A stretch of 64,000 bases of DNA from a virus (taxonomy: Duplodnaviria > Heunggongvirae > Uroviricota > Caudoviricetes), in IMG/VR virus record IMGVR_UViG_3300037189_028117, positions 18,977 to 82,976 of that record. One strand, 5' to 3'. The stretch's first letter is position 1. The number at the start of each line of letters is the position of its first letter. This document shows, in pieces, positions 3,997 to 54,527 of the stretch. The notes beneath the pieces are model-generated. The model had not been told where the DNA came from, did no database searches, and saw only the letters and a program-made list of their open reading frames with translations. The translations under genes were made by a program, and so were the position numbers.

Positions 3997-5310
3997 ATGC
4001 TAACTGACGTACATACAATTAATCAATCTAAGTTTAAGGAACTTCTCAAGGTTCATATTCAATGTGAAGAAAATCTTCTCGTTATCGGTCCTTCTGGCGG
4101 TGGAAAAACCGTAATTGCAAAATCTGTTGCTGACCAACTTGGTTGCGACTTGGTTTATGTAAACCTTGCGGTCATGGAAAGAACTGACTTTCAGGGTTTC
4201 CCAGTATTAGCTGATGATAAGCAATCAGTTGATTATGCAACGCCAACCTTCCTTTGCTTTACGGATACCGCTGCTTCTCAAGAAATTTCAAAGCTTGAAC
4301 GTAACCGTTCTGCCCTTGATGAAAGCAAGGATAAGAAAGCAATTGCAGCTCTTGATGCTAGAATCAAGACTCTTAAGAATCAGGAAGAGGAGCAAAAGCT
4401 TATTAACCTCTACAATTCTGGAATTAGAACTCCAGACTTGGAAGCAAAGGTTAAGGCTGCTCTTGAAGAAAGAAAGAAGTCTCGTCCAATTGTTTTCCTT
4501 TTCGACGAAGTTGATAAGGCTGCAACGGAAACAAACCAGACTCTTCTTGAACTTCTTCAGTTCAAGTCTATCAACGGTCGTCCACTCAATGTAAAGGCTT
4601 GTATTCTTACAGCTAACTTACCAGATGAGCATGCTCATTCTAACCAAATCAGCCATGCAATTTCAAAGCGTTGTTCAACTTATCGTTTAGATATTGAATT
4701 TGATATTTGGCGTGACTGGGCATTTAAGAACGATGTTCACACCCATATTATTCAGTTCTTATCTTCGCATGATAAGCTTCTGTATCAGCCAGCACCAGAT
4801 GGTGACGCAACGGCTTATGCTCTTCCTTCTCCTCGTACATGGGTATCTGCAAGTGATAAACTTAAGACGCTCGATGCAATGAATGTTCCTGATAAGGATA
4901 GTCTTATGACTGCAATTATTGCTGGTAACGTTGGAGAAACAGCAGCGATTAAGTTTGCAAGTTGGTATGAACATTACCGTAAGTGGGACAGCGCAATTGA
5001 AGATCTTGTAGAAAAGGGTAAGGCCCCAGATTTATCAAAGGCTGGAGCACAAGAAGTTCTTATCGTTGCAATTGCAGCTTGTAGCAAGGTTTACACTGAG
5101 CTTAAGCCAAACAATGACGCTCGTATCAAGAAGGTTGTAAAGAATGTTTACAAGTGGCTTGGTACTCAATCAAAGGATGTTCAACACGGAGCTATCCGAA
5201 TTTCATTCGGTGGAGATTTCCATACTGCATACCAATATGGTTTCTCTAAGATTGAGGAATCAATGAATATCTTCAATGATCTAAAGAAGGATTTCGAAAA
5301 GTACAAGTAA
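3997..5310 (+). CDS. MoxR-like AAA+ ATPase
   Basis: Walker A 'VIGPSGGGKTV', Walker B 'IVFLFDEVDKA'; strong RBS; gene pair with downstream VWA protein; locally higher GC than surroundings. Confidence 0.8.
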   Translation: MLTDVHTINQSKFKELLKVHIQCEENLLVIGPSGGGKTVIAKSVADQLGCDLVYVNLAVMERTDFQGFPVLADDKQSVDYATPTFLCFTDTAASQEISKLERNRSALDESKDKKAIAALDARIKTLKNQEEEQKLINLYNSGIRTPDLEAKVKAALEERKKSRPIVFLFDEVDKAATETNQTLLELLQFKSINGRPLNVKACILTANLPDEHAHSNQISHAISKRCSTYRLDIEFDIWRDWAFKNDVHTHIIQFLSSHDKLLYQPAPDGDATAYALPSPRTWVSASDKLKTLDAMNVPDKDSLMTAIIAGNVGETAAIKFASWYEHYRKWDSAIEDLVEKGKAPDLSKAGAQEVLIVAIAACSKVYTELKPNNDARIKKVVKNVYKWLGTQSKDVQHGAIRISFGGDFHTAYQYGFSKIEESMNIFNDLKKDFEKYK

Positions 5311-5326
5311 TTTTCGAAAAAACACA

Positions 5327-5349
5327 GGGGGTAGGTTTTTCCTACCCCC
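5327..5349 (+). other. GC-rich hairpin between MoxR and VWA genes (no U-tract)
   Basis: 'gggggtagg-ttttt-cctaccccc' 9-bp stem; flanked by two copies of palindrome TTTTCGAAAA. Confidence 0.45.
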
Positions 5350-5384
5350 ATTCCCCCAATTCTATATATATTTTAAGAGGTAAA

Positions 5385-6836
5385 ATGGCAAATCTTCTCA
5401 ATGACCCAAAGAACATCGCTTCAGATGATTTCGAAGAACTTAATGAAAAACTAAAAATTGCGCAAATGTTAATTTCGCGCTCACCTGATAAGAAAGGTTT
5501 TCCTTTCGTATATTGTTTTACTGCTCAGAAAGAGCATGTTTTGGAAGAAATTAAAATTCCAATTTTTACAGACGAAAATGGTAATGAAGAATATTTTTAT
5601 ACCGCAGCTACTGACGGTAAGAAATATTATTGGTCACCTCAATTAATTCGTGAAATGACCCCGAGAGCATTAGCTATCATTATGGCTCATGAAACTTACC
5701 ATGTTGTTTTGCAACATTGTATTCCTGCAAGAACCGGAGGAAAATTAAATTCAATCTGGAATATTGCAGTAGATTACGTTGTTAACGGAATGATTGAACA
5801 TGACGTTCGTCAAAGTTGGCCAGGAATGAATACAAATGAAAATTTCCGAGGAAAGGAACATCCTCTTTGGAAAGAAAAGCTTGGAAAGCCTCTTTATTTT
5901 GATGAACTTCTTGACTCCATCAAAGAGCAAACTAAGAAAAAGAAAGCTGAAAGAGCTGCTTCTAAAAATGGAAAAGCTCAGAAGCCACCTAAAGCTCAAA
6001 AGAAAAAGACTCCACCATCAAAAGATGATTTAAGGTTTTATGCCGATTATTCTTTGTATGGTAAATCTGCCGAAGAGATTTATGACCAAATCATCAAGGC
6101 TATGGAAGATCTTACCAATGAAGAAATGCAAGAAGCTCTTGAAGGCATGGGTATATCTATGGACGAACATATGGAACATGGTTTGTCAAAGGGTCAATTG
6201 TTTAAAGAAATCCTCGATGCTGCAAGAAATGCAAAAAAGCTTGCTGGAACCGTACCTGGATCAATTGAAGATCAAATTCTAAAGCTTCAAGAACCAAAAC
6301 TATCTGCTTTTGATATTATCAGAAATGTTATTAGCAAAAGAAGAGATGAAAAAGGTAGAATCAATGATTGGTCAAGATTTAAGAGAAGAGGATTATCTCT
6401 CGGTCTTTATCAACCAAAGAAAAAGGATGATTACATTCGTTGGTGCGCATTCCTAGATACGTCTGGGTCTATGAGTCAAGATGACCTTACATATGCCGTA
6501 AGTCAGCTAAAATGTTTGGATGGTCGTTCGGAAGGGATTGTTATTCCTAATGATGCCCAACCTTACTGGGATAAAGCAACTGACATTAAAAGAGTTGGTG
6601 ACTTACAAAGAACAAAGATTGTTGGTCGTGGCGGAACGGTATTCAAGCAAATCTTTGATGAATTTCCTAAGAAAATGAAAAAGCCAATTGATGTATTAAT
6701 TATTCTAACCGACGGTGGAATTTTTGATATGCCAGAATTAAAGAGACCAAATGTTAAGGTTGTTTGGATTTTAACAAACGATATGAAGGGATTTAACCCA
6801 CCTTTCGGTGAAGTTGCTCCCCTCAGAACATACTAA
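5385..6836 (+). CDS. VWA-domain protein with N-terminal zincin-like (HEXXH) domain, MoxR partner
   Basis: 'MAHETYHVVLQH' HEXXH; MIDAS 'FLDTSGSMS'; classic AAA(MoxR)+VWA operon; RBS 'aagagg'. Confidence 0.75.
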   Translation: MANLLNDPKNIASDDFEELNEKLKIAQMLISRSPDKKGFPFVYCFTAQKEHVLEEIKIPIFTDENGNEEYFYTAATDGKKYYWSPQLIREMTPRALAIIMAHETYHVVLQHCIPARTGGKLNSIWNIAVDYVVNGMIEHDVRQSWPGMNTNENFRGKEHPLWKEKLGKPLYFDELLDSIKEQTKKKKAERAASKNGKAQKPPKAQKKKTPPSKDDLRFYADYSLYGKSAEEIYDQIIKAMEDLTNEEMQEALEGMGISMDEHMEHGLSKGQLFKEILDAARNAKKLAGTVPGSIEDQILKLQEPKLSAFDIIRNVISKRRDEKGRINDWSRFKRRGLSLGLYQPKKKDDYIRWCAFLDTSGSMSQDDLTYAVSQLKCLDGRSEGIVIPNDAQPYWDKATDIKRVGDLQRTKIVGRGGTVFKQIFDEFPKKMKKPIDVLIILTDGGIFDMPELKRPNVKVVWILTNDMKGFNPPFGEVAPLRTY

Positions 6837-6851
6837 AAAGGAAAAATAAAT

Positions 6852-7082
6852 ATGTATGCGATTGATGTGTATTTAAACAGTGGTAAAAAGGTAGAAGCTC
6901 TTCTTTGGAGTTGGAAACCAAAAGAAGGATATTTTGAAGCTTTAGTTGAATCAACTGGAGCAATAAAGAAATATCAATTAAGAGAAGTTAGAGGAGGTAA
7001 ATTCTATTCGGATAGAATCCGTGAAGTATCTACCTCGGAAGATTTCCTTGAAAAAGCAAAAAGAGATGGTTTCGAAGGTTAA
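6852..7082 (+). CDS. hypothetical protein (76 aa)
   Basis: ORF with AT-biased codon use consistent with neighbours; no recognisable motif. Confidence 0.35.
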   Translation: MYAIDVYLNSGKKVEALLWSWKPKEGYFEALVESTGAIKKYQLREVRGGKFYSDRIREVSTSEDFLEKAKRDGFEG

Positions 7083-7305
7083 GCATTTCGAAGAGTTGTG
7101 GGAAGAAGCGGAATCTTTATCCTTTATGGATGAAGATTCCGTTTTCATTTCTATAATTGATGAAATCAATAATTTAAAAAAAAATCCTCAAAATATGGGT
7201 AAAGTTTTGCTATTATTGAGCTTTATATCAAAAAAATATAATATTGATGTTTATGATTTGTTGAAAAAAGAAATTGATCAAATTAAAATTGACAATTGGG
7301 AATGA
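7021..7305 (+). CDS. hypothetical protein (94 aa)
   Basis: ORF abutting repeat-family cluster; overlaps previous ORF, start uncertain. Confidence 0.3.
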   Translation: MKYLPRKISLKKQKEMVSKVKHFEELWEEAESLSFMDEDSVFISIIDEINNLKKNPQNMGKVLLLLSFISKKYNIDVYDLLKKEIDQIKIDNWE

Positions 7306-7692
7306 ATGCTTATGGGGCATAATTTGAAGTTAAAAACACAAAAATATTCTGAAAAAGAATTGGAAAATGATATTAATTTATTTGATGAACAGGATTGGGT
7401 TTATATTTTTAAATATCAAAATCTATCTGAATGGTTTATTGAAAAACACTATGATAAAATTGATTGGAGTGAGATTTCTTGGTCCAAAAAATTATCTGAA
7501 GAATTTATTGAAAAATATTCAGATAAAGTTGATTGGTATTATATTTCTGGATATCAAAAATTATCTGAAAAATTTATAAAAAAACATATAGATAAAATTG
7601 ATATTGATTGGTTAATGGAAAATAACAAAATTTCTGAAAAATTAAAAAATAAAATTAAAAAAGAAATTAATTTATTGAAAGAAATTATATGA
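7306..7692 (+). CDS. 23-aa-repeat family protein (3 repeats)
   Basis: 'KYSEKELENDINLFDEQDW', repeats, 'INLLKEII', ATGA junction. Confidence 0.7.
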   Translation: MLMGHNLKLKTQKYSEKELENDINLFDEQDWVYIFKYQNLSEWFIEKHYDKIDWSEISWSKKLSEEFIEKYSDKVDWYYISGYQKLSEKFIKKHIDKIDIDWLMENNKISEKLKNKIKKEINLLKEII

Positions 7693-8060
7693 AAAGACAT
7701 AATTTAGATTTAGGTAGAATAAAATATTCTGAAAAAGAATTAGAAAAAAATATTAAATTATTTGATTCAATTGATTGGTATAATATTTCTAAAAATCAAA
7801 AATTATCTGAAGAATTTATAGATAAATATTCAAAGATAGTTAGCTGGAGAGATATTTCTTGTTGTCAATATTTATCAGAAGAATTTATGGAAAAACACCA
7901 AAATAAAATTAGTTGGTGTTATATTTCTTGCTGCCAAAAATTATCTGAAAAATTTATAACAAAACATATAGATAAAATTGATTTTGAAGGGTTAATGGAA
8001 AATAAATATATTTCTCATAAAATTAAAGAAGAAATTAAAATATTGAAAGAAATTATATGA
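7689..8060 (+). CDS. 23-aa-repeat family protein (3 repeats)
   Basis: 'MKRHNLDL..KYSEKELEKNIKLF', Cys-containing repeat variants 'CCQYLSEEFMEKHQNKISW', 'KILKEII'. Confidence 0.7.
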   Translation: MKRHNLDLGRIKYSEKELEKNIKLFDSIDWYNISKNQKLSEEFIDKYSKIVSWRDISCCQYLSEEFMEKHQNKISWCYISCCQKLSEKFITKHIDKIDFEGLMENKYISHKIKEEIKILKEII

Positions 8061-8356
8061 AACATAATTTAGATTTAAGTAATACAAAATATTCAGAAGA
8101 AACGTTAGAAAAATATATTAATTCATTTTCTGGATGGGATTGGTATTATATTTCTTACTGTCAAGTTTTATCTGAAAAGTTTATAGAAAAACATTCGGAT
8201 AAATTAAATTGGTATGAAATTTCTTTTTATCAAAAATTATCCGAAGAATTTATGAAAAAACATATTGATAAAATTGATATTGGTTGTTTAACGGAGAACA
8301 AAAATATTTCTGAAAAAATCAAACAAGAAATTCAAACTTTGAAAGAAATAATTTAA
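8057..8356 (+). CDS. 23-aa-repeat family protein (2 repeats)
   Basis: 'MKHNLDLSNTKYSEETLEKYINSF', 'IQTLKEII'. Confidence 0.7.
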   Translation: MKHNLDLSNTKYSEETLEKYINSFSGWDWYYISYCQVLSEKFIEKHSDKLNWYEISFYQKLSEEFMKKHIDKIDIGCLTENKNISEKIKQEIQTLKEII

Positions 8357-8880
8357 GACATAGCTTGTTTTATTAGATACACAGAGGTTTCAAAATCATT
8401 AATTTGGCTCATTAACATATCGTCCAAACCTAATGACATTTCTCCAACAGCTTTAATTCGGTTGTAAACATCCTCCGCCATAATTATTAAATCTTGTTCA
8501 ACATCCAAAGAGTTTTTGAAAAAATTCTCAAAATGATACTTGCATAAGTTATTCATTTCAGGCAATTGATCTTCAATTACCAAAGAATCATTACCATATA
8601 AACCTATTATTTTTTCCGCAACGGAATCAATTTTATCACCAGCTTTTTCATAAATCTTTTGGAACATTTTATGATTCCCATAAAAATTTGGACCTTTACA
8701 TTTCCAATGAGAATGTTGATGAACAATATAAGAAACTCTAAGTAAAGCTAAATATTTATTTAATAAGTCTGGTCCAATAGAATCTTTTTTTTCTATTTTA
8801 GAAGAATCTGATGAATCATTTGCTAATTTAATTCTTCCAGATTTAATATCATCGTATATTTCTATTGGGTTTTTAACCAT
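8353..8880 (-). CDS. dps: Dps-like ferritin (DNA protection during starvation protein)
   Basis: 'LLRVSYIVHQHSHWKCKGPNFYGNHKMFQKIYEKAGDKIDSVAEKIIGLYG' matches Dps ferroxidase-site helix pair (HW.VKG..F...H..F...Y); SD 'gagga' upstream on minus strand; only minus-strand gene. Confidence 0.8.
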   Translation of the reverse strand: MVKNPIEIYDDIKSGRIKLANDSSDSSKIEKKDSIGPDLLNKYLALLRVSYIVHQHSHWKCKGPNFYGNHKMFQKIYEKAGDKIDSVAEKIIGLYGNDSLVIEDQLPEMNNLCKYHFENFFKNSLDVEQDLIIMAEDVYNRIKAVGEMSLGLDDMLMSQINDFETSVYLIKQAMS

Positions 8881-8930
8881 AAATCCTCAAATATAATGCA
8901 ACTTTATGCATTTCACTGAAAGGCAATAAT

Positions 8931-9650
8931 ATGAATATAATAAATGTTCCAAAAGGAACTCAAATACTCTTTGTTGGAGATATACACGAACACGATGATC
9001 AATTCTTTTCTTTAATGGAAAATTGGAAACCTTCTCTTGAAAGATGGGTCGTATCCCTGGGAGACGTGTGCGACAAGGGCAAGGGAGATGGAGCTTTCGA
9101 AAAGGTGTCTCATTTTTTGCAGGACGGCCACAGGCAGGGATGGGCAAGAGCAATCAAGGGAAACCACGAGCTGAAGCGTCTAAAAAATAGAAGACACAAT
9201 CTGAAAGATTATGACTTGTGGTGGAAAGAAAGACAAATTTCACTTTCATTTCAATTTTACAATTCAAATATTATAACTTGTGTTCATGCAGGAATTCCAC
9301 CCAAACTATCAAGCGATGATTTGAAAAAAAATCTTGATGTTTGTTATGTCAGAGACGTTGACGACCAAGGAATCATTCCATTAATTTGGAAACATGATGA
9401 AATAAATCCAAAGTTGGTCAAGGCTCGCGAAGGTGGGATTTCTTGGCATGAAATTTATGATGGACGTTTTGGTTATGTTATTTCCGGACATAATGCTCAA
9501 ACAGATGGCATTCCAAAGTTTTTTAATTATTCCTGCAATATAGATACAGGAGTATATGAAACTGGAATTTTAACTGGTCAAATTATTGATGAAAATGGAA
9601 AACTAGGAGAAACCTTACAAATTAAAGGTGAAGTTTTTAGAAGTAAATAA
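8931..9650 (+). CDS. calcineurin-like metallophosphoesterase (PPP family)
   Basis: 'LFVGDIHEHDD', 'SLGDVCDKG', 'GNHE' metallophosphatase motifs; contains a GC3-rich patch 9048-9182. Confidence 0.75.
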   Translation: MNIINVPKGTQILFVGDIHEHDDQFFSLMENWKPSLERWVVSLGDVCDKGKGDGAFEKVSHFLQDGHRQGWARAIKGNHELKRLKNRRHNLKDYDLWWKERQISLSFQFYNSNIITCVHAGIPPKLSSDDLKKNLDVCYVRDVDDQGIIPLIWKHDEINPKLVKAREGGISWHEIYDGRFGYVISGHNAQTDGIPKFFNYSCNIDTGVYETGILTGQIIDENGKLGETLQIKGEVFRSK

Positions 9651-9770: not shown

Positions 9771-9777
9771 AATATTA

Positions 9778-9804
9778 CGAAGTAATATTTTACTTCGTTT
9801 TTTG
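9778..9804 (+). terminator. intrinsic terminator
   Basis: 'cgaagtaa-tatt-ttacttcg' 8-bp stem + 'ttttttg'. Confidence 0.6.
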
Positions 9805-9807
9805 ATT

Positions 9808-9835
9808 TTGCAATTATTACAATATATGTTATAAT
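9808..9835 (+). promoter_or_regulatory. sigma70-like promoter with extended -10 (TTGCAA-16-TGtTATAAT), near-leaderless for ORF at 9843
   Basis: -35 9808-9813, -10 9830-9835 preceded by TG; ATG at 9843. Confidence 0.5.
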
Positions 9836-10575: not shown

Positions 10576-11001
10576 ATGAATCATTTAGAATATATAATAT
10601 CAAATTACGATGAAGAAATAACTAGAATGGGTAATGGTGAAGGTTTTTCTAGTGATTATAATTTGGTATTTCAAGGTTTATCTATTGAAGATTTAATATA
10701 CCTGAAAGAAAAATTAAATCCTGATCCGTCTATTTGGTCTTGGTTTATACCATATGATAAATTGGAAAAAATATTTCCCAATTGTAAAAAATGTATTATA
10801 CATTATAAAAAATTGGGTTATAGACAAAAACAAACTTGGTCAATAGAAATTTATGATTATAAAAATTTAGTTACTTTCTATGATGATCGTGAAAATTCAG
10901 ATGTGATTGATTTACAATATGCGGATATTATAAAAATATTTAATGATAATGACATAGAAAAAGATATTAAAGAATATTTCCTTTTAAAGGACATTATATG
11001 A
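10576..11001 (+). CDS. hypothetical protein ending 'LLKDII', ATGA-coupled
   Basis: shares C-terminal motif and junction with repeat family but lacks repeats. Confidence 0.45.
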   Translation: MNHLEYIISNYDEEITRMGNGEGFSSDYNLVFQGLSIEDLIYLKEKLNPDPSIWSWFIPYDKLEKIFPNCKKCIIHYKKLGYRQKQTWSIEIYDYKNLVTFYDDRENSDVIDLQYADIIKIFNDNDIEKDIKEYFLLKDII

Positions 11002-11351
11002 AATATATTGTTGTTTCAATTTTTATACCCGAATCTGGAGATAAATCTATTTATATTGCAACAAAAATTAATAGTAAAGAATTAATTGAAGAACCAATAT
11101 TTGATTGGGAAAACCTTGAATTTATAAAACAAATCTTTAATATAAAATTGATAATTAAAAATAATAAAGTAGATATAAATGAATTTATTAAAATTCATAA
11201 TTTCATCTTTTTAGAAGAAGATTTGTGCAGAATCTGTAACAAAACAAGAATATTTATTCCTTTAAAAGATTCATTTTCTTCAATTGAAGATTTTGAATCA
11301 TATGTTAAAAATGAAATTGATAAATTTGAATTATTTAAGGAAATTATATGA
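10998..11351 (+). CDS. hypothetical protein ending 'LFKEII', ATGA-coupled
   Basis: as above. Confidence 0.45.
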   Translation: MKYIVVSIFIPESGDKSIYIATKINSKELIEEPIFDWENLEFIKQIFNIKLIIKNNKVDINEFIKIHNFIFLEEDLCRICNKTRIFIPLKDSFSSIEDFESYVKNEIDKFELFKEII

Positions 11352-11938
11352 ATAAAGATAAACTATTTTTAAAAACTAAAAGGTATCCACAAAAAGAATT
11401 AGAAAAATATATTAATCTTTTTAATTCAAAAGATTGGAATAACATTTCTAAATATCAATATTTGTCAGAAAAATTTATTGAAAAACATTCAGATAAAATT
11501 AATTGGAAATTAATTTCTGCTCATCAAACTTTATCCGAAAAATTTATAGAAAAACATTACAATAAAGTTGATTGGGTTTATATTTCTCGTTGTCAAAAAT
11601 TAACAGAATTTCTTATAGAAAAACATTCAAATAAAATATCTTGGGGTTTTATTTCTTATTATCAAACTTTATCAGAATCATTTATTGAAAAATATCAGGA
11701 TAAACTTCATTGGTATTGGATTTCTTGGGCCCAAAGTTTATCTGAAGATTTTATTGAAAAACATTCAGATAAAATCTATTGGGATTGTATATCTCGATAT
11801 CAAAACTTATCTAAAGAATTTATAAAAAAACACGTTAATAAAATTAATTTTTATTATTTAAAATATAATAAAAACATTTCGAAAGAATTAAGATTAAAAA
11901 TTAAAAAAGAAATTGAATTATTGAAAGAAATTATATGA
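11348..11938 (+). CDS. 23-aa-repeat family protein (6 repeats)
   Basis: six consecutive 'SxYQxLSExFIEKHSDKIxWxxI' units; 'IELLKEII'. Confidence 0.75.
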   Translation: MNKDKLFLKTKRYPQKELEKYINLFNSKDWNNISKYQYLSEKFIEKHSDKINWKLISAHQTLSEKFIEKHYNKVDWVYISRCQKLTEFLIEKHSNKISWGFISYYQTLSESFIEKYQDKLHWYWISWAQSLSEDFIEKHSDKIYWDCISRYQNLSKEFIKKHVNKINFYYLKYNKNISKELRLKIKKEIELLKEII

Positions 11939-12144
11939 AGTCAAAATTAGTATTTTTTATAATTGCACCAGAAATTTCAATAGAATCTGCAGCTTTAGCT
12001 TTTAAAGAGAAATATTCTGAGTTCTTTAAAACTCATAATTTTTTAAAATCATTAGAGCATAACTATTTTAGTTATAACGGTGATTCTTGCGAAGAAATGA
12101 TTGAAGAATATAAGAAATATTTGTTGTTACAGGAAATAATATGA
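11935..12144 (+). CDS. hypothetical small protein ending 'LLQEII'
   Basis: ATGA-coupled small ORF. Confidence 0.4.
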   Translation: MKSKLVFFIIAPEISIESAALAFKEKYSEFFKTHNFLKSLEHNYFSYNGDSCEEMIEEYKKYLLLQEII

Positions 12145-12329
12145 CTAACATTTTAAAAATATCAAAGTTTTTAATAAAAGAAAATATAAAATTTTTCACA
12201 ATAGGATATAAAGAAAATTATTTTGTTGTTTTCTATATATTCGGAAATAGAGATGAAAACTCAATTTTTGAGTTTGAAGATATTAAGTATAAATTTAGAA
12301 AGGTTAATTACCCACATTATGAAAATTGA
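12141..12329 (+). CDS. hypothetical small protein
   Basis: ATGA overlap (ATGAAAATTGA) with RNA ligase start. Confidence 0.35.
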   Translation: MTNILKISKFLIKENIKFFTIGYKENYFVVFYIFGNRDENSIFEFEDIKYKFRKVNYPHYEN

Positions 12330-13398
12330 TATATCAAAATACAACCTTGAAGATTTCAGAATATTAGAGACTAATATTGCTGGAGAAAAGTGTTATTTAA
12401 TTAATCCAAATCATATAAACACAAAATGGACAAAAGAAAATTTAATTTTCCGTTCATCTATGTGGAATTCGAATTGGGAATCAATATCTCTTTCGTTCAA
12501 AAAGTTTTTTAATTGGGAAGAACAAACAGAGATGATACCAAAGCCTAATTCATTAAAAGAAGCGAAGTGCATTGAAAAAATTGATGGTTCTACTCTAATT
12601 ATTTCAAAATACAAGGGTGAATTAATTATTCGCACAAGAGGAACTACTTCCGCTTATAATTTAGAAAATGGTAATGAAATTGATTTTCTAAAACAAAAAT
12701 ATCCAAATTGTTTTAATTTTACAAATGAAAATCAAACTTATATTTATGAATGGGTTTCTCCTGTAAATAAAATTGTAATAAATTATGGTAATGATCCTGA
12801 TATTTATTTAACTGCCGTTATCAATCATTCGGATTATAGCATGGTTAAACAATCTGAATTAGATAAAATTGCTTTAACTTTGGGTGTTAAAAGACCAAAG
12901 GTATTTTCTTTTAAATCAATTGATGACATGGTATACTTGATTGATAACTTAAAAGGTCAAGAGGGTATCTGTGTTTATTTTAAAAACGAACAAGAAATAA
13001 AAAAAGTAAAATCTGCTTGGTATCTAACTTTGCATAGGATGAAAACTGAACTTGGTTCCTTTGAAAGGGTTGTAGATTTATATTTTGTAATAAATAAGCC
13101 GGATTATAATACATACTACCAATATGTAGTTGATAATTTTGATTATGAGCTTGCAGAATCTTGTAAATCTCATATTTCAAGAATATGTGATGGAATGAAG
13201 GAAGTTAACAAAATAGTGAAAGCGATGAAAGAAAAAGCTGATGAAGTAAGAGGCTTGACAAGAAAGGAAGCTGCCGCTATAATTCTTTCTGATTACGGAG
13301 TTACAAACCGTTCTGGAATGGTATTTTCTTTATTAGATAATAAACCTTTACAGGATAAAGATTATAAAAGATTATTATTTCAAGTAACCAAAATGTAA
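12319..13398 (+). CDS. RNA ligase, T4 Rnl1-like
   Basis: motif I 'EKIDGSTLIISKYKGELIIRTRG' (T4 Rnl1 '[23 protein letters not shown]'); 'YEWVSPVNKIVINY', 'KVKSAWYLTLH' colinear with Rnl1; start taken at 'MKIDISKY'. Confidence 0.75.
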   Translation: MKIDISKYNLEDFRILETNIAGEKCYLINPNHINTKWTKENLIFRSSMWNSNWESISLSFKKFFNWEEQTEMIPKPNSLKEAKCIEKIDGSTLIISKYKGELIIRTRGTTSAYNLENGNEIDFLKQKYPNCFNFTNENQTYIYEWVSPVNKIVINYGNDPDIYLTAVINHSDYSMVKQSELDKIALTLGVKRPKVFSFKSIDDMVYLIDNLKGQEGICVYFKNEQEIKKVKSAWYLTLHRMKTELGSFERVVDLYFVINKPDYNTYYQYVVDNFDYELAESCKSHISRICDGMKEVNKIVKAMKEKADEVRGLTRKEAAAIILSDYGVTNRSGMVFSLLDNKPLQDKDYKRLLFQVTKM

Positions 13399-18951: not shown

Positions 18952-18962
18952 TATTTTAACAT

Positions 18963-19313
18963 ATGAAAATGAACAAAAAACATTTAGAAAAATTCAAGAT
19001 ACATTTTAATGAATGTATATCGAAAATTGATTCTGATATCAAAAAAGAGATTGAAATCGATATTTCTGGCGATGAAGTTGATGAAGCTTCAGGGGATTCT
19101 ATTGCAAAGGTAATGAAACAGCTTTCTGAAAGAAATCTTAGAAAAAAGAAATCTATCGAGAGCGCTCTTCTAAAAATAGAAGATGGTACATTTGGGGAAT
19201 GCGAAGAATGTGGATGCCAAATTGGAGAAAAACGTTTATTAGCAATACCAGATGCAAAACATTGCATTAATTGTGCAGAAGATTTAGAACATATCGCAAA
19301 GCAATTTGCTTAA
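18963..19313 (+). CDS. DksA/TraR-family C4 zinc-finger protein
   Basis: coiled-coil N-term then 'CEECGCQIGEKRLLAIPDAKHCINCAEDLE'. Confidence 0.75.
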   Translation: MKMNKKHLEKFKIHFNECISKIDSDIKKEIEIDISGDEVDEASGDSIAKVMKQLSERNLRKKKSIESALLKIEDGTFGECEECGCQIGEKRLLAIPDAKHCINCAEDLEHIAKQFA

Positions 19314-34057: not shown

Positions 34058-34350
34058 TGCTAAATGAATATATTTTAATTTACATACCAAATAAAAACAA
34101 TGAATTTTTTGATTTTTTTATTTCTTATGATAAAAATTATCAAAATAATGATGATCTTGGAAAATATTTCAAAAAATTTGAACCAAATACAATAGATATT
34201 GAATTGTTTTTAACAGAAATTGATAATGATTATTTATTTAAATTAAATAATAAAGTTAAAGAAGATGGTTTTTATTGTTATTTGAAATATAAGAAAAAAA
34301 CAATAAAACAAGATATAAAAAATTTGTTAACGATTAAGGATATTATATAA
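34057..34350 (+). CDS. hypothetical protein ending 'LLTIKDII'
   Basis: shared C-tail only. Confidence 0.4.
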   Translation: MLNEYILIYIPNKNNEFFDFFISYDKNYQNNDDLGKYFKKFEPNTIDIELFLTEIDNDYLFKLNNKVKEDGFYCYLKYKKKTIKQDIKNLLTIKDII

Positions 34351-34361
34351 AGGAAAATCGA

Positions 34362-35411
34362 ATGATAAAAAACACAATAGGAATACCAAAAGAAATAAAA
34401 AAATTTGAATTTAGAGTTGGAGCAACTCCAACTTGTGTAAAAGCTTACAAGAAAATTTGCGAATATGTTTTCGTTGAAGCTGGAGCTGGTATAGGTTCCG
34501 GCTTTTCTGACGATGAATATGCTGAAGCTGGAGCAACAATTGTATCCACAGCAAAAGAAGCTTGGAATGCTGAAATGGTTATAAAAGTAAAAGAACCTCA
34601 ACCTTCTGAATTTCAATATTTTGAAAAAGGTAAATTTCTTTATACTTACCTTCATTTAGCAGCTTTCCCAGATTTAACAGAAGCTTTGGTTCGCTCTGAG
34701 ATGAATTGCGTTGGATATGAAACAATCTCAGAAAACAATTCTTTAGTTTGTCTAGAACCAATGTCCATCATTGCTGGCAAGCTGGCTGCTCAGAAGGGGT
34801 CCGAGTACCTCCTAGCGCCACACGGTAGGGGCATTTTAATGGGGGGTCTTCCTGGAATTCCTCCAGCCAATGTAACCATTGTTGGTGGTGGTTCAGTCGG
34901 AACGGCCGCTGCAAGAGTATCTATTGGCATGGGAGCAAACGTTACCATACTTGATATTTCTCAAAAAAGATTATATGAATTAGAAAATATATTTGGAAAT
35001 TCAGTTAATTTATTATTATCAAATGATAAAAATATAAAATCAACATTAGTAAATACTGATCTTTTAATTGGTGCAGTTCTTATTCCTGGTAAAAAAGCTC
35101 CAAAATTATTTAATTCAATTTTACTTAATTTAATGAAAAGAAATTCTGTATTTGTTGATGTTGCCATAGATCAAGGTGGTTGTTCAGATACATCTGTGCC
35201 TACTACACATGATAATCCTATATATTATAAAGATAATATTTTGCATTATTGTGTAGCAAATATGCCTTCTGTATCAGCTAGAACATCAACTTTAGCCTTA
35301 ACTAATTCAACTTTAAAATATGGTTTAGATTTATTTTTAAATAAAGATAGAAAATGCGAAATAGATAAAGGTTGGCAAATTAATAAAAACGGAATGATAA
35401 TATCAATGTGA
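34362..35411 (+). CDS. ald: L-alanine dehydrogenase
   Basis: near-colinear with bacterial Ald: 'IGIPKEIKKFEFRV', 'AGAGIGSGF', 'AEMVIKVKEP', 'YTYLHLAA', 'VTIVGGGSVGTAAAR', 'VDVAIDQGG', 'HYCVANMP'; SD 'aaaggaaaatcg'. Confidence 0.85.
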   Translation: MIKNTIGIPKEIKKFEFRVGATPTCVKAYKKICEYVFVEAGAGIGSGFSDDEYAEAGATIVSTAKEAWNAEMVIKVKEPQPSEFQYFEKGKFLYTYLHLAAFPDLTEALVRSEMNCVGYETISENNSLVCLEPMSIIAGKLAAQKGSEYLLAPHGRGILMGGLPGIPPANVTIVGGGSVGTAAARVSIGMGANVTILDISQKRLYELENIFGNSVNLLLSNDKNIKSTLVNTDLLIGAVLIPGKKAPKLFNSILLNLMKRNSVFVDVAIDQGGCSDTSVPTTHDNPIYYKDNILHYCVANMPSVSARTSTLALTNSTLKYGLDLFLNKDRKCEIDKGWQINKNGMIISM

Positions 35412-35442: not shown

Positions 35443-36273
35443 ATGTCTAAATGGCGACCAGCATCAGAATGTACATATGTAATTGGTGATATTCATGGTT
35501 ATAATGAACCTTTGAATTTAATATTAAAAAGAATATTGCCTTTAAGAAAAAATGATAAAATAATATTCTTAGGAGATTATGTTGATAGGGGGCCAGATTC
35601 CGCTGGAGTAATTGATACAATAATTTCTTTAAAAGAAGAATATGGAGATCAAATTATAGCTTTAATGGGTAATCATGAGTGGTTGTTTATGGCTTCCATG
35701 GGTAAGTTAAATAATAAAGTATACTATGATGACCCTTTACAAATTTGGTTTTCAAATGGAGCATATAATACTTTGTGGTCTTATGTAAGATCAAAGGGTG
35801 TATCAGAAAATGATATGCGACAAATGCCATTAGATAGATTTAATAATATAATTCCACAAAAACATTTTGATTTTTTAACTAATTTACCATATTTTTATGA
35901 AACAAATGATTATATATTTGTTCATGCAGGTTGTGATCCATATGAAAATATAAGTCTTCAAAATGAAAATGATTTAATTTGGGACAGATCCTTATTTAAT
36001 AAGGTGCTTTCATTAATAGCAAATGACAAAGAGGTTGATTTTCCAAAAACAATTGTAACTGGACATAATAGTCGAGGACCAGTTATTACAAGTAAGTTCA
36101 TGATGATAGATTGTAGCTCTTCAAAGAGAATAATGTGTCTAGAATTGAATTCTATGGAAGCATTTTTTGCTGAACCAGGAAATAAAAGACTAGTAAAATG
36201 TGATGTGCAGGAATCAAATAAAAAAGATTTAGGCATAAATAATATAAAACAAGCTGTATTTAAAAGATGTTAA
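35443..36273 (+). CDS. PPP-family Ser/Thr phosphatase / ApaH-like metallophosphoesterase
   Basis: 'VIGDIHGY', 'LGDYVDRGPDS', 'GNHE'. Confidence 0.75.
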   Translation: MSKWRPASECTYVIGDIHGYNEPLNLILKRILPLRKNDKIIFLGDYVDRGPDSAGVIDTIISLKEEYGDQIIALMGNHEWLFMASMGKLNNKVYYDDPLQIWFSNGAYNTLWSYVRSKGVSENDMRQMPLDRFNNIIPQKHFDFLTNLPYFYETNDYIFVHAGCDPYENISLQNENDLIWDRSLFNKVLSLIANDKEVDFPKTIVTGHNSRGPVITSKFMMIDCSSSKRIMCLELNSMEAFFAEPGNKRLVKCDVQESNKKDLGINNIKQAVFKRC

Positions 36274-44870: not shown

Positions 44871-45413
44871 TTGCAAAACTTTAAGAATAAAAGACCAAAT
44901 AAAATATATATACCTTATAATGATAGAATTAAAGCAACTCACGTTAGATGCATAGATTCTTCAAATGAAAATATAGGTGTCTTACCTATAATGGAAGCTA
45001 TAGATAAAGCTTTCTCTGAAGATTTAGATTTAGTTCAAATTTCTGAAGGAAAGGATGGTATACCAGTTTGTAAAATAACTGATTTTGGAAAGTTTAAATT
45101 TGAATTTCAAAAGAAACAAAAAGAGACTGCTAAGAAACAAAGAGAAGCAATTATCAAAGTAAAAGAAATAAAATTAAGACCTTCTACAGAAGATAATGAT
45201 TTAAAAATAAAAGCAGAAAAAGCTAATGAATTTATAAATGATGGTGATAAAGTAAAAATATTTATAGTATTTAGAGGAAGAGAAATGGCTCATAAAGAGT
45301 TGGGTTACGAAACTTTAAATAAATTTTTAAGTTTTATACCGGAGAAAAATGTTTATAATCAATCTTTTCAAGGGAAAATTCTATCAACAATGATAGAGAA
45401 GAAAGCAAAATGA
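44871..45413 (+). CDS. infC: translation initiation factor IF-3 (TTG start)
   Basis: 'IPVCKITDFGKFKFEFQKK..KKQ...IKVKEIKLRPSTEDNDLKIK...DGDKVKIFIVFRGREMAH' colinear with bacterial IF-3. Confidence 0.85.
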   Translation: MQNFKNKRPNKIYIPYNDRIKATHVRCIDSSNENIGVLPIMEAIDKAFSEDLDLVQISEGKDGIPVCKITDFGKFKFEFQKKQKETAKKQREAIIKVKEIKLRPSTEDNDLKIKAEKANEFINDGDKVKIFIVFRGREMAHKELGYETLNKFLSFIPEKNVYNQSFQGKILSTMIEKKAK

Positions 45414-45922
45414 TAATTACAGATATAGATAAGCTTTCGGTTTTATCAGAAGATGTAAGTCCGGAAGAAGCTCTTACTATAATTGACTTATTAGAAAAAG
45501 AATTAGAAAATTCTGCAAAGCAAGGTAGTCCAGGCATTGGATTAGCTGCGCCACAAATAGGTATAAATAAAAAGGTAGCTATAGTTAGAGTTGGTGACAA
45601 TAAAATAAATCTTGTTAATTCTAAAATAGTAGAAAAAATAATACCTTTCGAATTTGATGGTGAAGGATGTCTTTCATTCCCTGGAATGATTAAAAAAACT
45701 AAAAGGTACAAAGAAATAGTTGTAGAGAACGAAATTTATCCACACAAGTTTATTGCAACTGATTTGTTGGCAGTTGTAATTCAACACGAAATTGGTCATT
45801 GGAATAACGAACTTTTGCCTTATATAGAAGATCTTAATCCAAAAGTAAAACAGAAATTACGACCGAATGATCTATGTAATTGTGGTAGTGGTAAAAAATA
45901 TAAAAAATGTTGTGGAGCATAA
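45410..45922 (+). CDS. def: peptide deformylase with C-terminal SEC-C zinc motif
   Basis: PDF motifs 'GIGLAAPQIG', 'EGCLSFPG', 'QHEIGH'; C-terminus 'CNCGSGKKYKKCCG' = SecA-type SEC-C. Confidence 0.8.
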   Translation: MIITDIDKLSVLSEDVSPEEALTIIDLLEKELENSAKQGSPGIGLAAPQIGINKKVAIVRVGDNKINLVNSKIVEKIIPFEFDGEGCLSFPGMIKKTKRYKEIVVENEIYPHKFIATDLLAVVIQHEIGHWNNELLPYIEDLNPKVKQKLRPNDLCNCGSGKKYKKCCGA

Positions 45923-53552: not shown

Positions 53553-54527
53553 ATGCCTGTTTTAACAATTACTATTTCGGAAGATCCAATTCAAATCATA
53601 TCAGGAATACCAAGAAGTATATCTGTTGAAACAAATTTACCTTCAACCGTTTTCTACACTTTAGATGGTTCAGATCCAACTGTTGATTCAGATATATTAA
53701 TTGGATCATTAACTTTACCAACAAATTATCCATCAATTTTATTAAAATTGTTTGCTACAAATGGCGTTGATGATTCTGGAATAATTGAAATAGAATATAA
53801 AACCTCTTGGATAGGTGATAAAAGGCCAAGAGATAAAGTTATATCTGATGATAGCGGTTGTTCCAGTGGTTGCGTTGAACCATTCACTTCCTCCTACACA
53901 GGTCCAACAGCACAATATGGAAACATGGCCGGTGTTGTTGTGGACTCGGCCGGAACCGAAGGTATACCTAACGGTTACAGGGATGGATATGTAGTATCGG
54001 AAACTGATAAGCCATATCATAGATGGAATTATGATATAGTTTATGATACAACAAACTCTATAGGTTTAAGCGGTCCTTTTATTGGTAACTTGCCAGCGAA
54101 AGTTACTTATTATAAACCTCCAACTTATAATAAATCAAATAAAGTTAATAGTTTATTATTTAATCCAAAAGCAATGGTTATCGTGCAAGATGGTAGACAA
54201 GAAAATGAAGATCCAAATGTAACTTTTTTAAATAGAAATTATTTCTCACTAAAGCCTTCGAGAGATGATTTTAGTGACTATACAACACCAGCGAACGACG
54301 GAAATCCATTAAAGGGTTCTTTTATTAAATCTTTTTATAATCAAAAAGAAAACACTTATACATTTTATTATAGAGATTTTGCAACGGATAGATGGATAAT
54401 ATCAATTGAACCTGCCTCAAAAATAAAAACAAATCCAAAACCTGTTTTGAAAGATTTTATTGCCCCAGTTTCTTTTGCTAATAAAAAAGTTTTCCAATGG
54501 GTTCCATTTCATAGAAGATACATTTAA
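53553..54527 (+). CDS. hypothetical beta-rich protein (324 aa)
   Basis: ORF; contains GC3-rich patch 53853-53985. Confidence 0.45.
   Translation: MPVLTITISEDPIQIISGIPRSISVETNLPSTVFYTLDGSDPTVDSDILIGSLTLPTNYPSILLKLFATNGVDDSGIIEIEYKTSWIGDKRPRDKVISDDSGCSSGCVEPFTSSYTGPTAQYGNMAGVVVDSAGTEGIPNGYRDGYVVSETDKPYHRWNYDIVYDTTNSIGLSGPFIGNLPAKVTYYKPPTYNKSNKVNSLLFNPKAMVIVQDGRQENEDPNVTFLNRNYFSLKPSRDDFSDYTTPANDGNPLKGSFIKSFYNQKENTYTFYYRDFATDRWIISIEPASKIKTNPKPVLKDFIAPVSFANKKVFQWVPFHRRYI

Follow-up and report, generated by a model that had tools for sequence, protein, structure and literature searches.

Why should a phage with a unidirectional genome keep one gene running head-on against all the others, and is such a gene recent cargo or part of the phage's own equipment? 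This question is raised by a 64,000-nucleotide (nt) stretch of a Caudoviricetes genome (positions 18,977 to 82,976 of IMG/VR record IMGVR_UViG_3300037189_028117; the whole stretch is called the window below), in which a gene for a Dps-family mini-ferritin lies on the minus strand. The original prediction, made from the letters of the window without database searches, read this gene as an independently regulated moron inserted beside a phosphoesterase gene. Comparison with related phages shows that the gene is an old, conserved fixture of a very-large-phage lineage and not a recent insertion. We consider it probable that its product is a phage-native ferroxidase cage, autonomously transcribed, which limits iron and peroxide damage during infection.

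The minus-strand gene and its predicted product

The Dps open reading frame (ORF) starts with ATG and encodes 175 amino acids (aa). The end coordinate of 8930 given for it previously corresponds to the gene plus the 50-base-pair (bp) spacer beside it. The locus is defined by the following features:

8353..8880, minus strand: Dps-family mini-ferritin gene, identified by PF00210, PHROG 3636/858, PDB matches, AlphaFold and Foldseek
8353-8356: convergent overlap of 4 nt (TTAA) that holds the stops of Dps and of the plus-strand gene 8057..8356
8881..8930: divergent spacer of 50 bp, from the Dps start codon to the phosphoesterase start codon
8931..9650, plus strand: PPP-type metallophosphoesterase of 239 aa (Pfam Metallophos, 1.5e-9)

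The arrangement described in the original prediction is thus present as described, with the Dps stop overlapping convergently with that of the upstream plus-strand gene and the phosphoesterase, which starts at 8931, diverging from Dps across 50 bp. Within 8357-8880 the plus strand holds no ORF of at least 40 aa.

The earlier label of a Dps or ferritin-like protein is correct by Pfam, PHROG, PDB sequence and fold matches. The Pfam Ferritin model (PF00210) recognises the protein at E 2.1e-10 and 41.1 bits, above the curated gathering score of 24.5; Pfam DUF5856 gives a sub-threshold match, and the phage Dps-like families PHROG 3636 and 858 are both matched. The NCBIfam Dps equivalog models match only under their strict cut-offs (35.9 vs 114 bits), which marks the protein as a member of the Dps family and not as an equivalog of E. 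coli Dps. A sequence search of the PDB returned 70 matches at E<=1, and the best 60 of these are all Dps-family proteins or Dps-scaffold fusion constructs, carrying names such as Dlp, MrgA, NapA, Dpr and non-heme ferritin. The top matches are B. anthracis Dlp-2 (1jig, 8e-10), S. aureus Dps and B. brevis Dps; when the family profile was used for the search, S. aureus Dps (2d5k) was matched near full length at 1.5e-13.

The predicted structure agrees with this assignment. An AlphaFold2 model built on 31 homologues (predicted local distance difference test, pLDDT, 91.1) places helices at 36-60, 66-95, 102-112 (BC), 120-144 and 150-174, giving a four-helix bundle with a short BC helix, preceded by an N-terminal 37-aa extension that carries a short helix of its own. 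The short helix in the BC loop is what separates Dps from the maxi-ferritins. Among the best 50 Foldseek hits in the PDB all are Dps, with target-normalised template modelling (TM) scores of 0.59-0.83.

Five residues, H58, W59, H70, D85 and E89, are invariant across the alignment of 31 homologues. Positions 38-103 of the phage protein run in ungapped register with positions 11-76 of the L. innocua Dps chain (1qgh), and in this register the five residues correspond to His31, Trp32, His43, Asp58 and Glu62 of the Listeria protein, which form its inter-subunit ferroxidase site; PDB entries 2bjy and 2bk6 are H31G/H43G mutants of the same protein. The phage protein thereby has the two histidines of one subunit, the aspartate and glutamate of the other and the adjacent tryptophan that make up a ferroxidase centre. 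In the pore region, the motif LGLDDM (G151 and D154 invariant) aligns with the acidic D..DM start of Dps helix D. Sequence and model together indicate that the gene encodes a true Dps-type mini-ferritin with the full inter-subunit ferroxidase site, and the invariance of the iron site argues for a real ferroxidase function in infection.

Conservation of position, strand and composition

The window contains about 100 ORFs of at least 90 aa, and Dps is the sole family-supported minus-strand gene in its 64 kilobases (kb). Five other ORFs of this size were found on that strand:

18956-19267, 34278-34655, 35958-36236, 45334-45711 and 53742-54020, minus strand: the other ORFs of at least 90 aa

Each is overlapped by a longer or family-supported plus-strand ORF, in one case by a gene for a DksA-like zinc finger protein (18963-19313, plus strand), and none of the five has a PHROG match, so the earlier view of Dps as the only convincing minus-strand gene holds.

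To place the gene among its relatives we used a protein search, which gave 33 Dps homologues, and a scan of IMG/VR, which gave 73 Dps loci, mostly on contigs of 100-480 kb. In a 90-kb contig whose Dps is 59% identical (L002), Dps is the sole gene opposite to all its neighbours and diverges from a Metallophos gene that is 46% identical to the one in the window, with the DUF2201 and AAA genes on its other side. The same layout as in the window is seen at L008, where Dps is 42% identical, and a minority-strand Dps diverging from a Metallophos gene also occurs at L049, L057 and L079. Three further loci (L083, L084 and L085) were sampled independently, starting from phosphoesterase homologues on long contigs. 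All three have a Dps-family gene of 149-150 aa directly upstream of the phosphoesterase, divergent from it and on the minority strand (hmmsearch against the family profile, 1e-57 to 1e-64; spacer, 27-48 bp), with its 3′ end overlapping or abutting a convergent gene. Across the relatives the Dps-phosphoesterase spacers measure 16-76 bp, and the 3′ overlap or abutment of Dps is found in L009, L010, L026, L048, L049, L079, L083 and L084.

Strand was then counted over the whole set, on ORFs called by a simple procedure and loci dereplicated at 90% identity, and a gene was assigned to the minority strand when at least 70% of 12 flanking genes were opposite to it. Dps lies on the minority strand in 30 of 58 dereplicated loci, and in 26 of the 40 with forms of 200 aa or less, against a baseline of 10.2% for all other genes of these loci; within the largest cluster (36 loci) the share is 94%. 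The head-on orientation of Dps is an ancestral, maintained trait that is coupled to the phosphoesterase.

These results do not fit the insertion that was originally proposed: every syntenic relative examined has Dps at this position and on this strand, an outcome that the original prediction itself had named as a refutation. Its composition is equally native. The gene has a G+C (GC) content of 27.8%, where the window as a whole has 27.2%, and by synonymous codon usage it stands 47th among 101 genes, so that the composition shows no trace of recent acquisition. Of the marks that would define Dps as a moron, neither presence/absence polymorphism nor foreign composition was found, and the gene has no terminator of its own. 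The genes missing at the syntenic position in L002 are the tryptophan-repeat genes, not Dps:

7306..8356, plus strand: three tandem tryptophan-repeat family genes (PHROG 3532), with DNA similarity to the Bacillus phage BpSp family

This family, which lies upstream of Dps in the window, is also present in Bacillus phage BpSp, Listeria phage LPJP1 and phage G. In a gene-by-gene comparison its members have no counterpart at the L002 position, and they are a variable, expanding element beside the conserved Dps-phosphoesterase pair. Further tandem members lie at 11348-11938 (also 10576-12144). The tryptophan-repeat products and several of their neighbours end in ...KEII, KDII or QEII, with stops that overlap the next start (ATGA).

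Other features of composition were noted at the locus. The genes for the AAA ATPase (3997-5310), the DUF2201 protein (5385-6836) and the phosphoesterase (8931-9650) are GC-rich outliers at 36-40% (z>2; window, 27%), and no backbone genes are better conserved across the relatives than these three. In codon usage the phosphoesterase is the second most atypical of the 101 genes. An invertible segment was considered and rejected, as no inverted repeats flank the Dps gene. Three short inverted repeats do connect the first 53 nt of the phosphoesterase gene (8942-8983) with the interior of Dps (8438-8669); they measure 14 nt at 100%, 14 nt at 93% and 12 nt at 92% identity and follow the same order in the sense direction. 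In a post hoc test on 236 background chunks such diagonals averaged 0.22 per chunk and never exceeded 2, against the three seen here. No such repeats were found in eight relatives, and we have set them aside as due to chance or specific to the window.

The wider family is large. An exhaustive profile search gave 253 clusters (50% identity) at E<=1e-30 and 1,353 at E<=1e-10, many of the latter with extra domains, while a scan of 185,579 species-representative genomes of bacteria and archaea gave no relative with the clade signatures. The Dps of the window apparently belongs to a large clade restricted to phages. Cultured phages offer nothing closer than 27-44% identity over part of the protein, and the best match in a phage database is an uncultured 485-kb genome (36%). 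A megablast search with 25 kb against INPHARED (50,697 phage records) gave no match, which indicates a phage without a close sequenced isolate.

The divergent spacer and transcription of the locus

The signals read from the sequence in and around the spacer are as follows:

8884-8888, minus strand: Shine-Dalgarno sequence GAGGA, 3 nt 5′ of the Dps ATG, by direct sequence reading
8896-8911: inverted repeat ATGCA-N6-TGCAT (ATGCAACTTTATGCAT) with a 5-bp arm, a 6-nt spacer and a 5-bp arm, judged a chance feature
8934..8963, minus strand: candidate sigma-70-like promoter for Dps, TTGAGT-18-TATATT, inside the first phosphoesterase codons
9777..9798: bidirectional intrinsic-terminator-like hairpin downstream of the phosphoesterase
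9808-9835: promoter-like site TTGCAA-16-TGnTATAAT, after the 9777..9798 hairpin

Cellular dps genes are often controlled by PerR, Fur or OxyR, and the palindrome in the spacer had been put forward as a possible operator of the PerR/Fur type. The palindrome is indeed present at 8896-8911, but it has arms of only 5+5 bp and occurs at chance frequency: with up to one mismatch, ATGCA-N6-TGCAT has 3 matches in the window where 2.5 are expected, and a count of 3 was reached in 49 of 100 shuffles. In eight relatives the spacers (16-76 bp) contain neither the palindrome nor any other common motif. We also searched for the PerR/Fur box patterns TTATAATNATTATAA and TGATAATNATTATCA with up to three mismatches, a consensus that is that of B. 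subtilis and may not be the host's, and no match was obtained in 8881-9000 upstream of Dps; their window-wide counts are 73 and 28, against 70 and 27 expected from shuffles. The frequency test, the spacers of the relatives and the consensus searches together speak against the palindrome as an operator.

The same evidence bears on the proposal that Dps is a recent moron derived from the host and placed, through the palindrome, under a PerR/Fur-type repressor of the host. Such an origin would suit a gene that stands alone on its strand and has start signals of its own, and it would match the common regulation of cellular dps. However, position and orientation are kept in relatives down to 42% identity, the composition is native, the family signature is absent from the 185,579 species genomes, and the palindrome is neither conserved nor above chance, with no PerR/Fur consensus upstream. 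We regard a recent, repressor-controlled acquisition as extremely improbable.

Independent transcription, the other part of the regulatory proposal, stands, because a gene alone on the opposite strand requires a promoter of its own. As Dps opposes a unidirectional genome and has no 3′ terminator, this promoter would have to lie in the spacer or in the 5′ end of the phosphoesterase gene, where the candidate at 8934..8963 is found. On inspection of the intergenic regions of the window, Dps was found to have no motif in common with other genes there. Elsewhere in the window, genes have sigma-70-like promoters and clear intrinsic terminators. For Dps, no minus-strand terminator was detected within 7000-8353 downstream of the gene, nor between the convergent genes, where Dps and the gene at 8057-8356 leave no space for one on either strand. 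The hairpin at 9777..9798 and the promoter-like site after it close the Dps-phosphoesterase transcription block. GC-rich hairpins with T-runs on both sides, at 5311-5384 and 9777-9798, could be bidirectional terminators. The hairpin near 5330-5360 is the first candidate terminator for the minus-strand Dps transcript, and termination there would yield an antisense RNA of up to 3 kb over the repeat genes and DUF2201.

Translation signals vary among the relatives. Other genes in the window are preceded by GAGG-N4-ATG sites similar to that of Dps, and a GAGG(A/C) sequence precedes the Dps start both in the window (8881-8890) and in L002, unlike the starts of several relatives, which have no Shine-Dalgarno sequence and show a TATAAT-like box about 5-15 nt from the ATG:

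L008:899-915, L049:5970-5985, L079:5939-5970 and L085: Dps starts of relatives without a Shine-Dalgarno sequence

These relatives possibly infect hosts with leaderless or Shine-Dalgarno-independent initiation, and the phage lineage may span hosts that differ in their translation-initiation habits.

Function, rival readings and known systems

Our preferred reading, a phage-native ferroxidase cage, entails the following mechanism. The Dps protein would assemble into a 12-subunit cage and, judging by the conservation of the ligands, would oxidise Fe2+ with H2O2 or O2 and store the iron. Storage would lower Fenton chemistry in the infected cell during replication of the phage DNA. The gene would be transcribed monocistronically from a promoter in the spacer or within the phosphoesterase 5′ end, and plus-strand read-through would be antisense to it, such that Dps expression would be decoupled from this read-through and possibly opposed by it through antisense or collision control. 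Early in a lytic infection of Yersinia ruckeri, the genes that the host induces most include those for Dps, catalase and peroxiredoxin (PMC7354516).

The original prediction had suggested that Dps protects replicating viral DNA or scavenges iron. The anti-oxidative and iron role is the part that is best supported, whereas protection through binding of DNA is disfavoured by the charge of the protein. The phage protein is acidic, with an isoelectric point (pI) of 5.36, and its N-terminal 37 residues hold 7 K/R and 7 D/E for a net charge of 0; the tails of the homologues range from +2 to -5 and are mostly 0 or negative. In E. coli Dps, a basic, Lys-rich tail mediates DNA binding. No Lys/Arg-rich tail of this type was found in the phage protein, which probably does not bind DNA in that way. 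This evidence also bears on the idea that the Dps-like cage belongs to the virion or associates with DNA, being packaged with the phage genome or coating it, and that it would protect this genome in the particle or on entry instead of serving as a soluble antioxidant of the infected cell. The PHROG and JGI family labels read 'DNA binding', and a gene on the opposite strand could be expressed late. These labels, however, are inherited names and not tests, the protein is acidic (pI 5.4), its neutral tail differs from that of E. coli Dps, as do most tails of the family, and the neighbours of the gene serve replication and RNA repair and are not structural. A packaging or coating role is accordingly unlikely in our estimate, including when the virion evidence from phage G, given below, is counted.

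The lasting neighbour of Dps calls for separate consideration. The phosphoesterase has intact metal motifs (GDxHEH / GDxxDKG / GNHE / H / GH) and a confident AlphaFold model (pLDDT 95.5). A PDB sequence search gave no match for it, and it was assigned by fold search, its nearest folds being the putative Ap4A hydrolase 2qjc, lambda phosphatase 1g5b, the Pnkp phosphatase domain 4j6o and ApaH 9ojd. Motifs and model indicate a PPP-like di-metal enzyme, set amid RNA ligase and Thg1-like genes. The window, part of a 171,650-bp contig, encodes a DnaE-like polymerase, SbcCD, RNA ligase 1, an ATP-dependent DNA ligase and a Thg1-like protein, together with a DUF2201 metallopeptidase/VWA protein and an AAA ATPase, and represents a large-phage region for replication and RNA repair; it contains no tRNAs and no Rfam matches. 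A probable nucleic-acid repair set can be discerned in it, and at L083 a NUDIX hydrolase and an Rnl2-like ligase adjoin the phosphoesterase as additions to this set:

10-819, 1493-2332, 8931-9650 and 12223-13398: DNA ligase, Thg1-like protein, PPP/Pnkp-like phosphoesterase and T4 Rnl1-like RNA ligase

In a sister group of huge phages, the phosphoesterase homologue and Dps point the same way within a small cassette on the minority strand. This homologue has lost every metal-binding motif (no GDxH, GDxxD, GNHE or GH) and still adjoins Dps; by its sequence it is a probable pseudo-phosphoesterase. The cassette also includes one or two proteins of 110-130 aa. In 22-23 loci a member of this partner family directly follows Dps in the same orientation, and the window has none:

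L006:7322-7942, L011:5236-5913, L021:201-806, L040, L042, L043, L052, L059 and L061: sister-group loci
L006:8449-8829 and 8839-9177: 110-130-aa partner proteins, with P0029 and P0033 as motif carriers

The partner motifs …KIAxxQQxxIxKLAQ… and …IKAQKPELDGKVS… recur as a C-terminal extension of Dps forms of 274-277 aa, which indicates gene fusion.

It could be argued from this linkage that Dps and the phosphoesterase are one module, in which the cage buffers iron or manganese or delivers it to the PPP-type enzyme, or is its physical partner, for example within a phage RNA-repair or signalling set. The adjacency survives deep divergence and an inversion (divergent in one group, co-oriented in the other), it holds in all three loci that were reached through the phosphoesterase, and even beside a phosphoesterase without metal ligands, and PPP enzymes are di-metal, with Fe-PP1 and Mn-PP5 among the PDB neighbours. 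Metal delivery is hard to reconcile with a group whose phosphoesterase no longer has its metal site, though, and the phosphoesterase is adjacent in only 15 of 58 dereplicated Dps loci. The adjacency may also be the inherited synteny of one lineage, in which other flanking families are equally conserved. We therefore find a joint module quite doubtful. A broader possibility is that the cage is the core of a separately transcribed, multi-protein nanocage module with partners or cargo, gated by convergent or antisense transcription. The antisense placement with neighbours abutting the gene at either end, the lasting link to a phosphoesterase that decays in the sister group and the fused small partners would point to such a phage-specific system, which we rate as a rather slight chance.

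Several observations weigh against a native ferroxidase cage with its own transcription as the full account of this gene. The timing of Dps expression and its antisense control are pure inference. The promoter candidate is no more than a candidate, as the scan of the window that produced it gave 22 promoter-like sites against 22.4 expected from shuffles, and no conserved promoter motif was found in the Dps spacers of the relatives. The nominal binomial p of 3e-15 for minority-strand placement is inflated by shared ancestry. The placement is clade-structured, being found in 5 of 14 clusters (50% identity linkage), and in one 18-locus cluster Dps is never on the minority strand, which means that the family has no universal requirement for it. 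The phosphoesterase linkage and the small-partner fusions hint at a role beyond antioxidant defence. Finally, gp346 of phage G, a distant Dps-like protein, has been reported in the virion proteome as a ferritin-like protein (PMC12484599, 2025), as a packaged cage would lead one to expect; this protein is, however, too distant from the family for tblastn to reach it.

The Dps assignment is well supported and unsurprising, and current understanding is not overturned by it; what goes beyond routine annotation is only the conserved head-on orientation and the phosphoesterase linkage. Phage-borne Dps genes have hitherto been noticed in annotation only. If the function is confirmed, iron and peroxide management would be a conserved need of large-genome phages, and the locus would offer a natural case of a gene kept head-on in a unidirectional genome. 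Literature searches on phage-encoded Dps in jumbo phages, ferritin and DUF5856 returned nothing, and in the portions of the literature available to us we found no mention of a conserved minority-strand placement of phage Dps or of its pairing with a PPP-type phosphoesterase.

Among known systems, the nearest are the Dps proteins of Firmicutes (B. anthracis Dlp-1 and Dlp-2, 1ji5 and 1jig; S. aureus, 2d5k; B. subtilis MrgA, 2chp; L. innocua, 1qgh). The phage protein shares with them the fold with its BC helix, the His/His/Asp/Glu ligands with the tryptophan, and the acidic helix-D pore motif, and like the non-DNA-binding Dps of Listeria and Bacillus it is acidic and without a basic tail. It differs in being only about 20% identical to them in structural alignment, in its clade signatures (HQHSHWKCKG, FYGNHLLF, AEK for AER, and LGLDDM), which were not found in cellular genomes, in the conserved N-terminal extension of 30-40 aa (KNPxDxYxDMxxGRxKLA) of the subgroup to which the window belongs, and in being encoded by huge phages.

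DPS-like genes have been noted before in phages, including Lactobacillus plantarum myophages, 'Gratiaviridae', gut phages, Clostridium tetani phiCT, Cronobacter GAP52 and Aeromonas LAh. The reports describe such genes in seven Lactobacillus phages (PMC8008677, PMC6669764) and in 'Gratiaviridae' and 36 other gut phage genomes (PMC8008677), and read them as protection from oxygen or iron toxicity (PMC8008677, PMC6669764). The gene in the window has in common with them a location near DNA-metabolism genes and the families PHROG 3636/858; for Pfam DUF5856, also a family of those phage genes, its match is sub-threshold. A very distant comparison is gp346 of phage G (L082:30161-30880), an unannotated protein of 239 aa with a Pfam Ferritin match of 1.6e-13, which hhalign aligns with the family at 66% probability over 54 columns; a thioredoxin reductase gene and two metallophosphoesterase genes lie a few genes away from it. 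It differs in an N-terminal extension of about 100 aa, in lying on the strand of most of its neighbours and in having no adjacent phosphoesterase. What it shares with the Dps of the window is the HW...H...D..AE motif, the Ferritin domain, and a home in a megaphage that also carries the tryptophan-repeat family.

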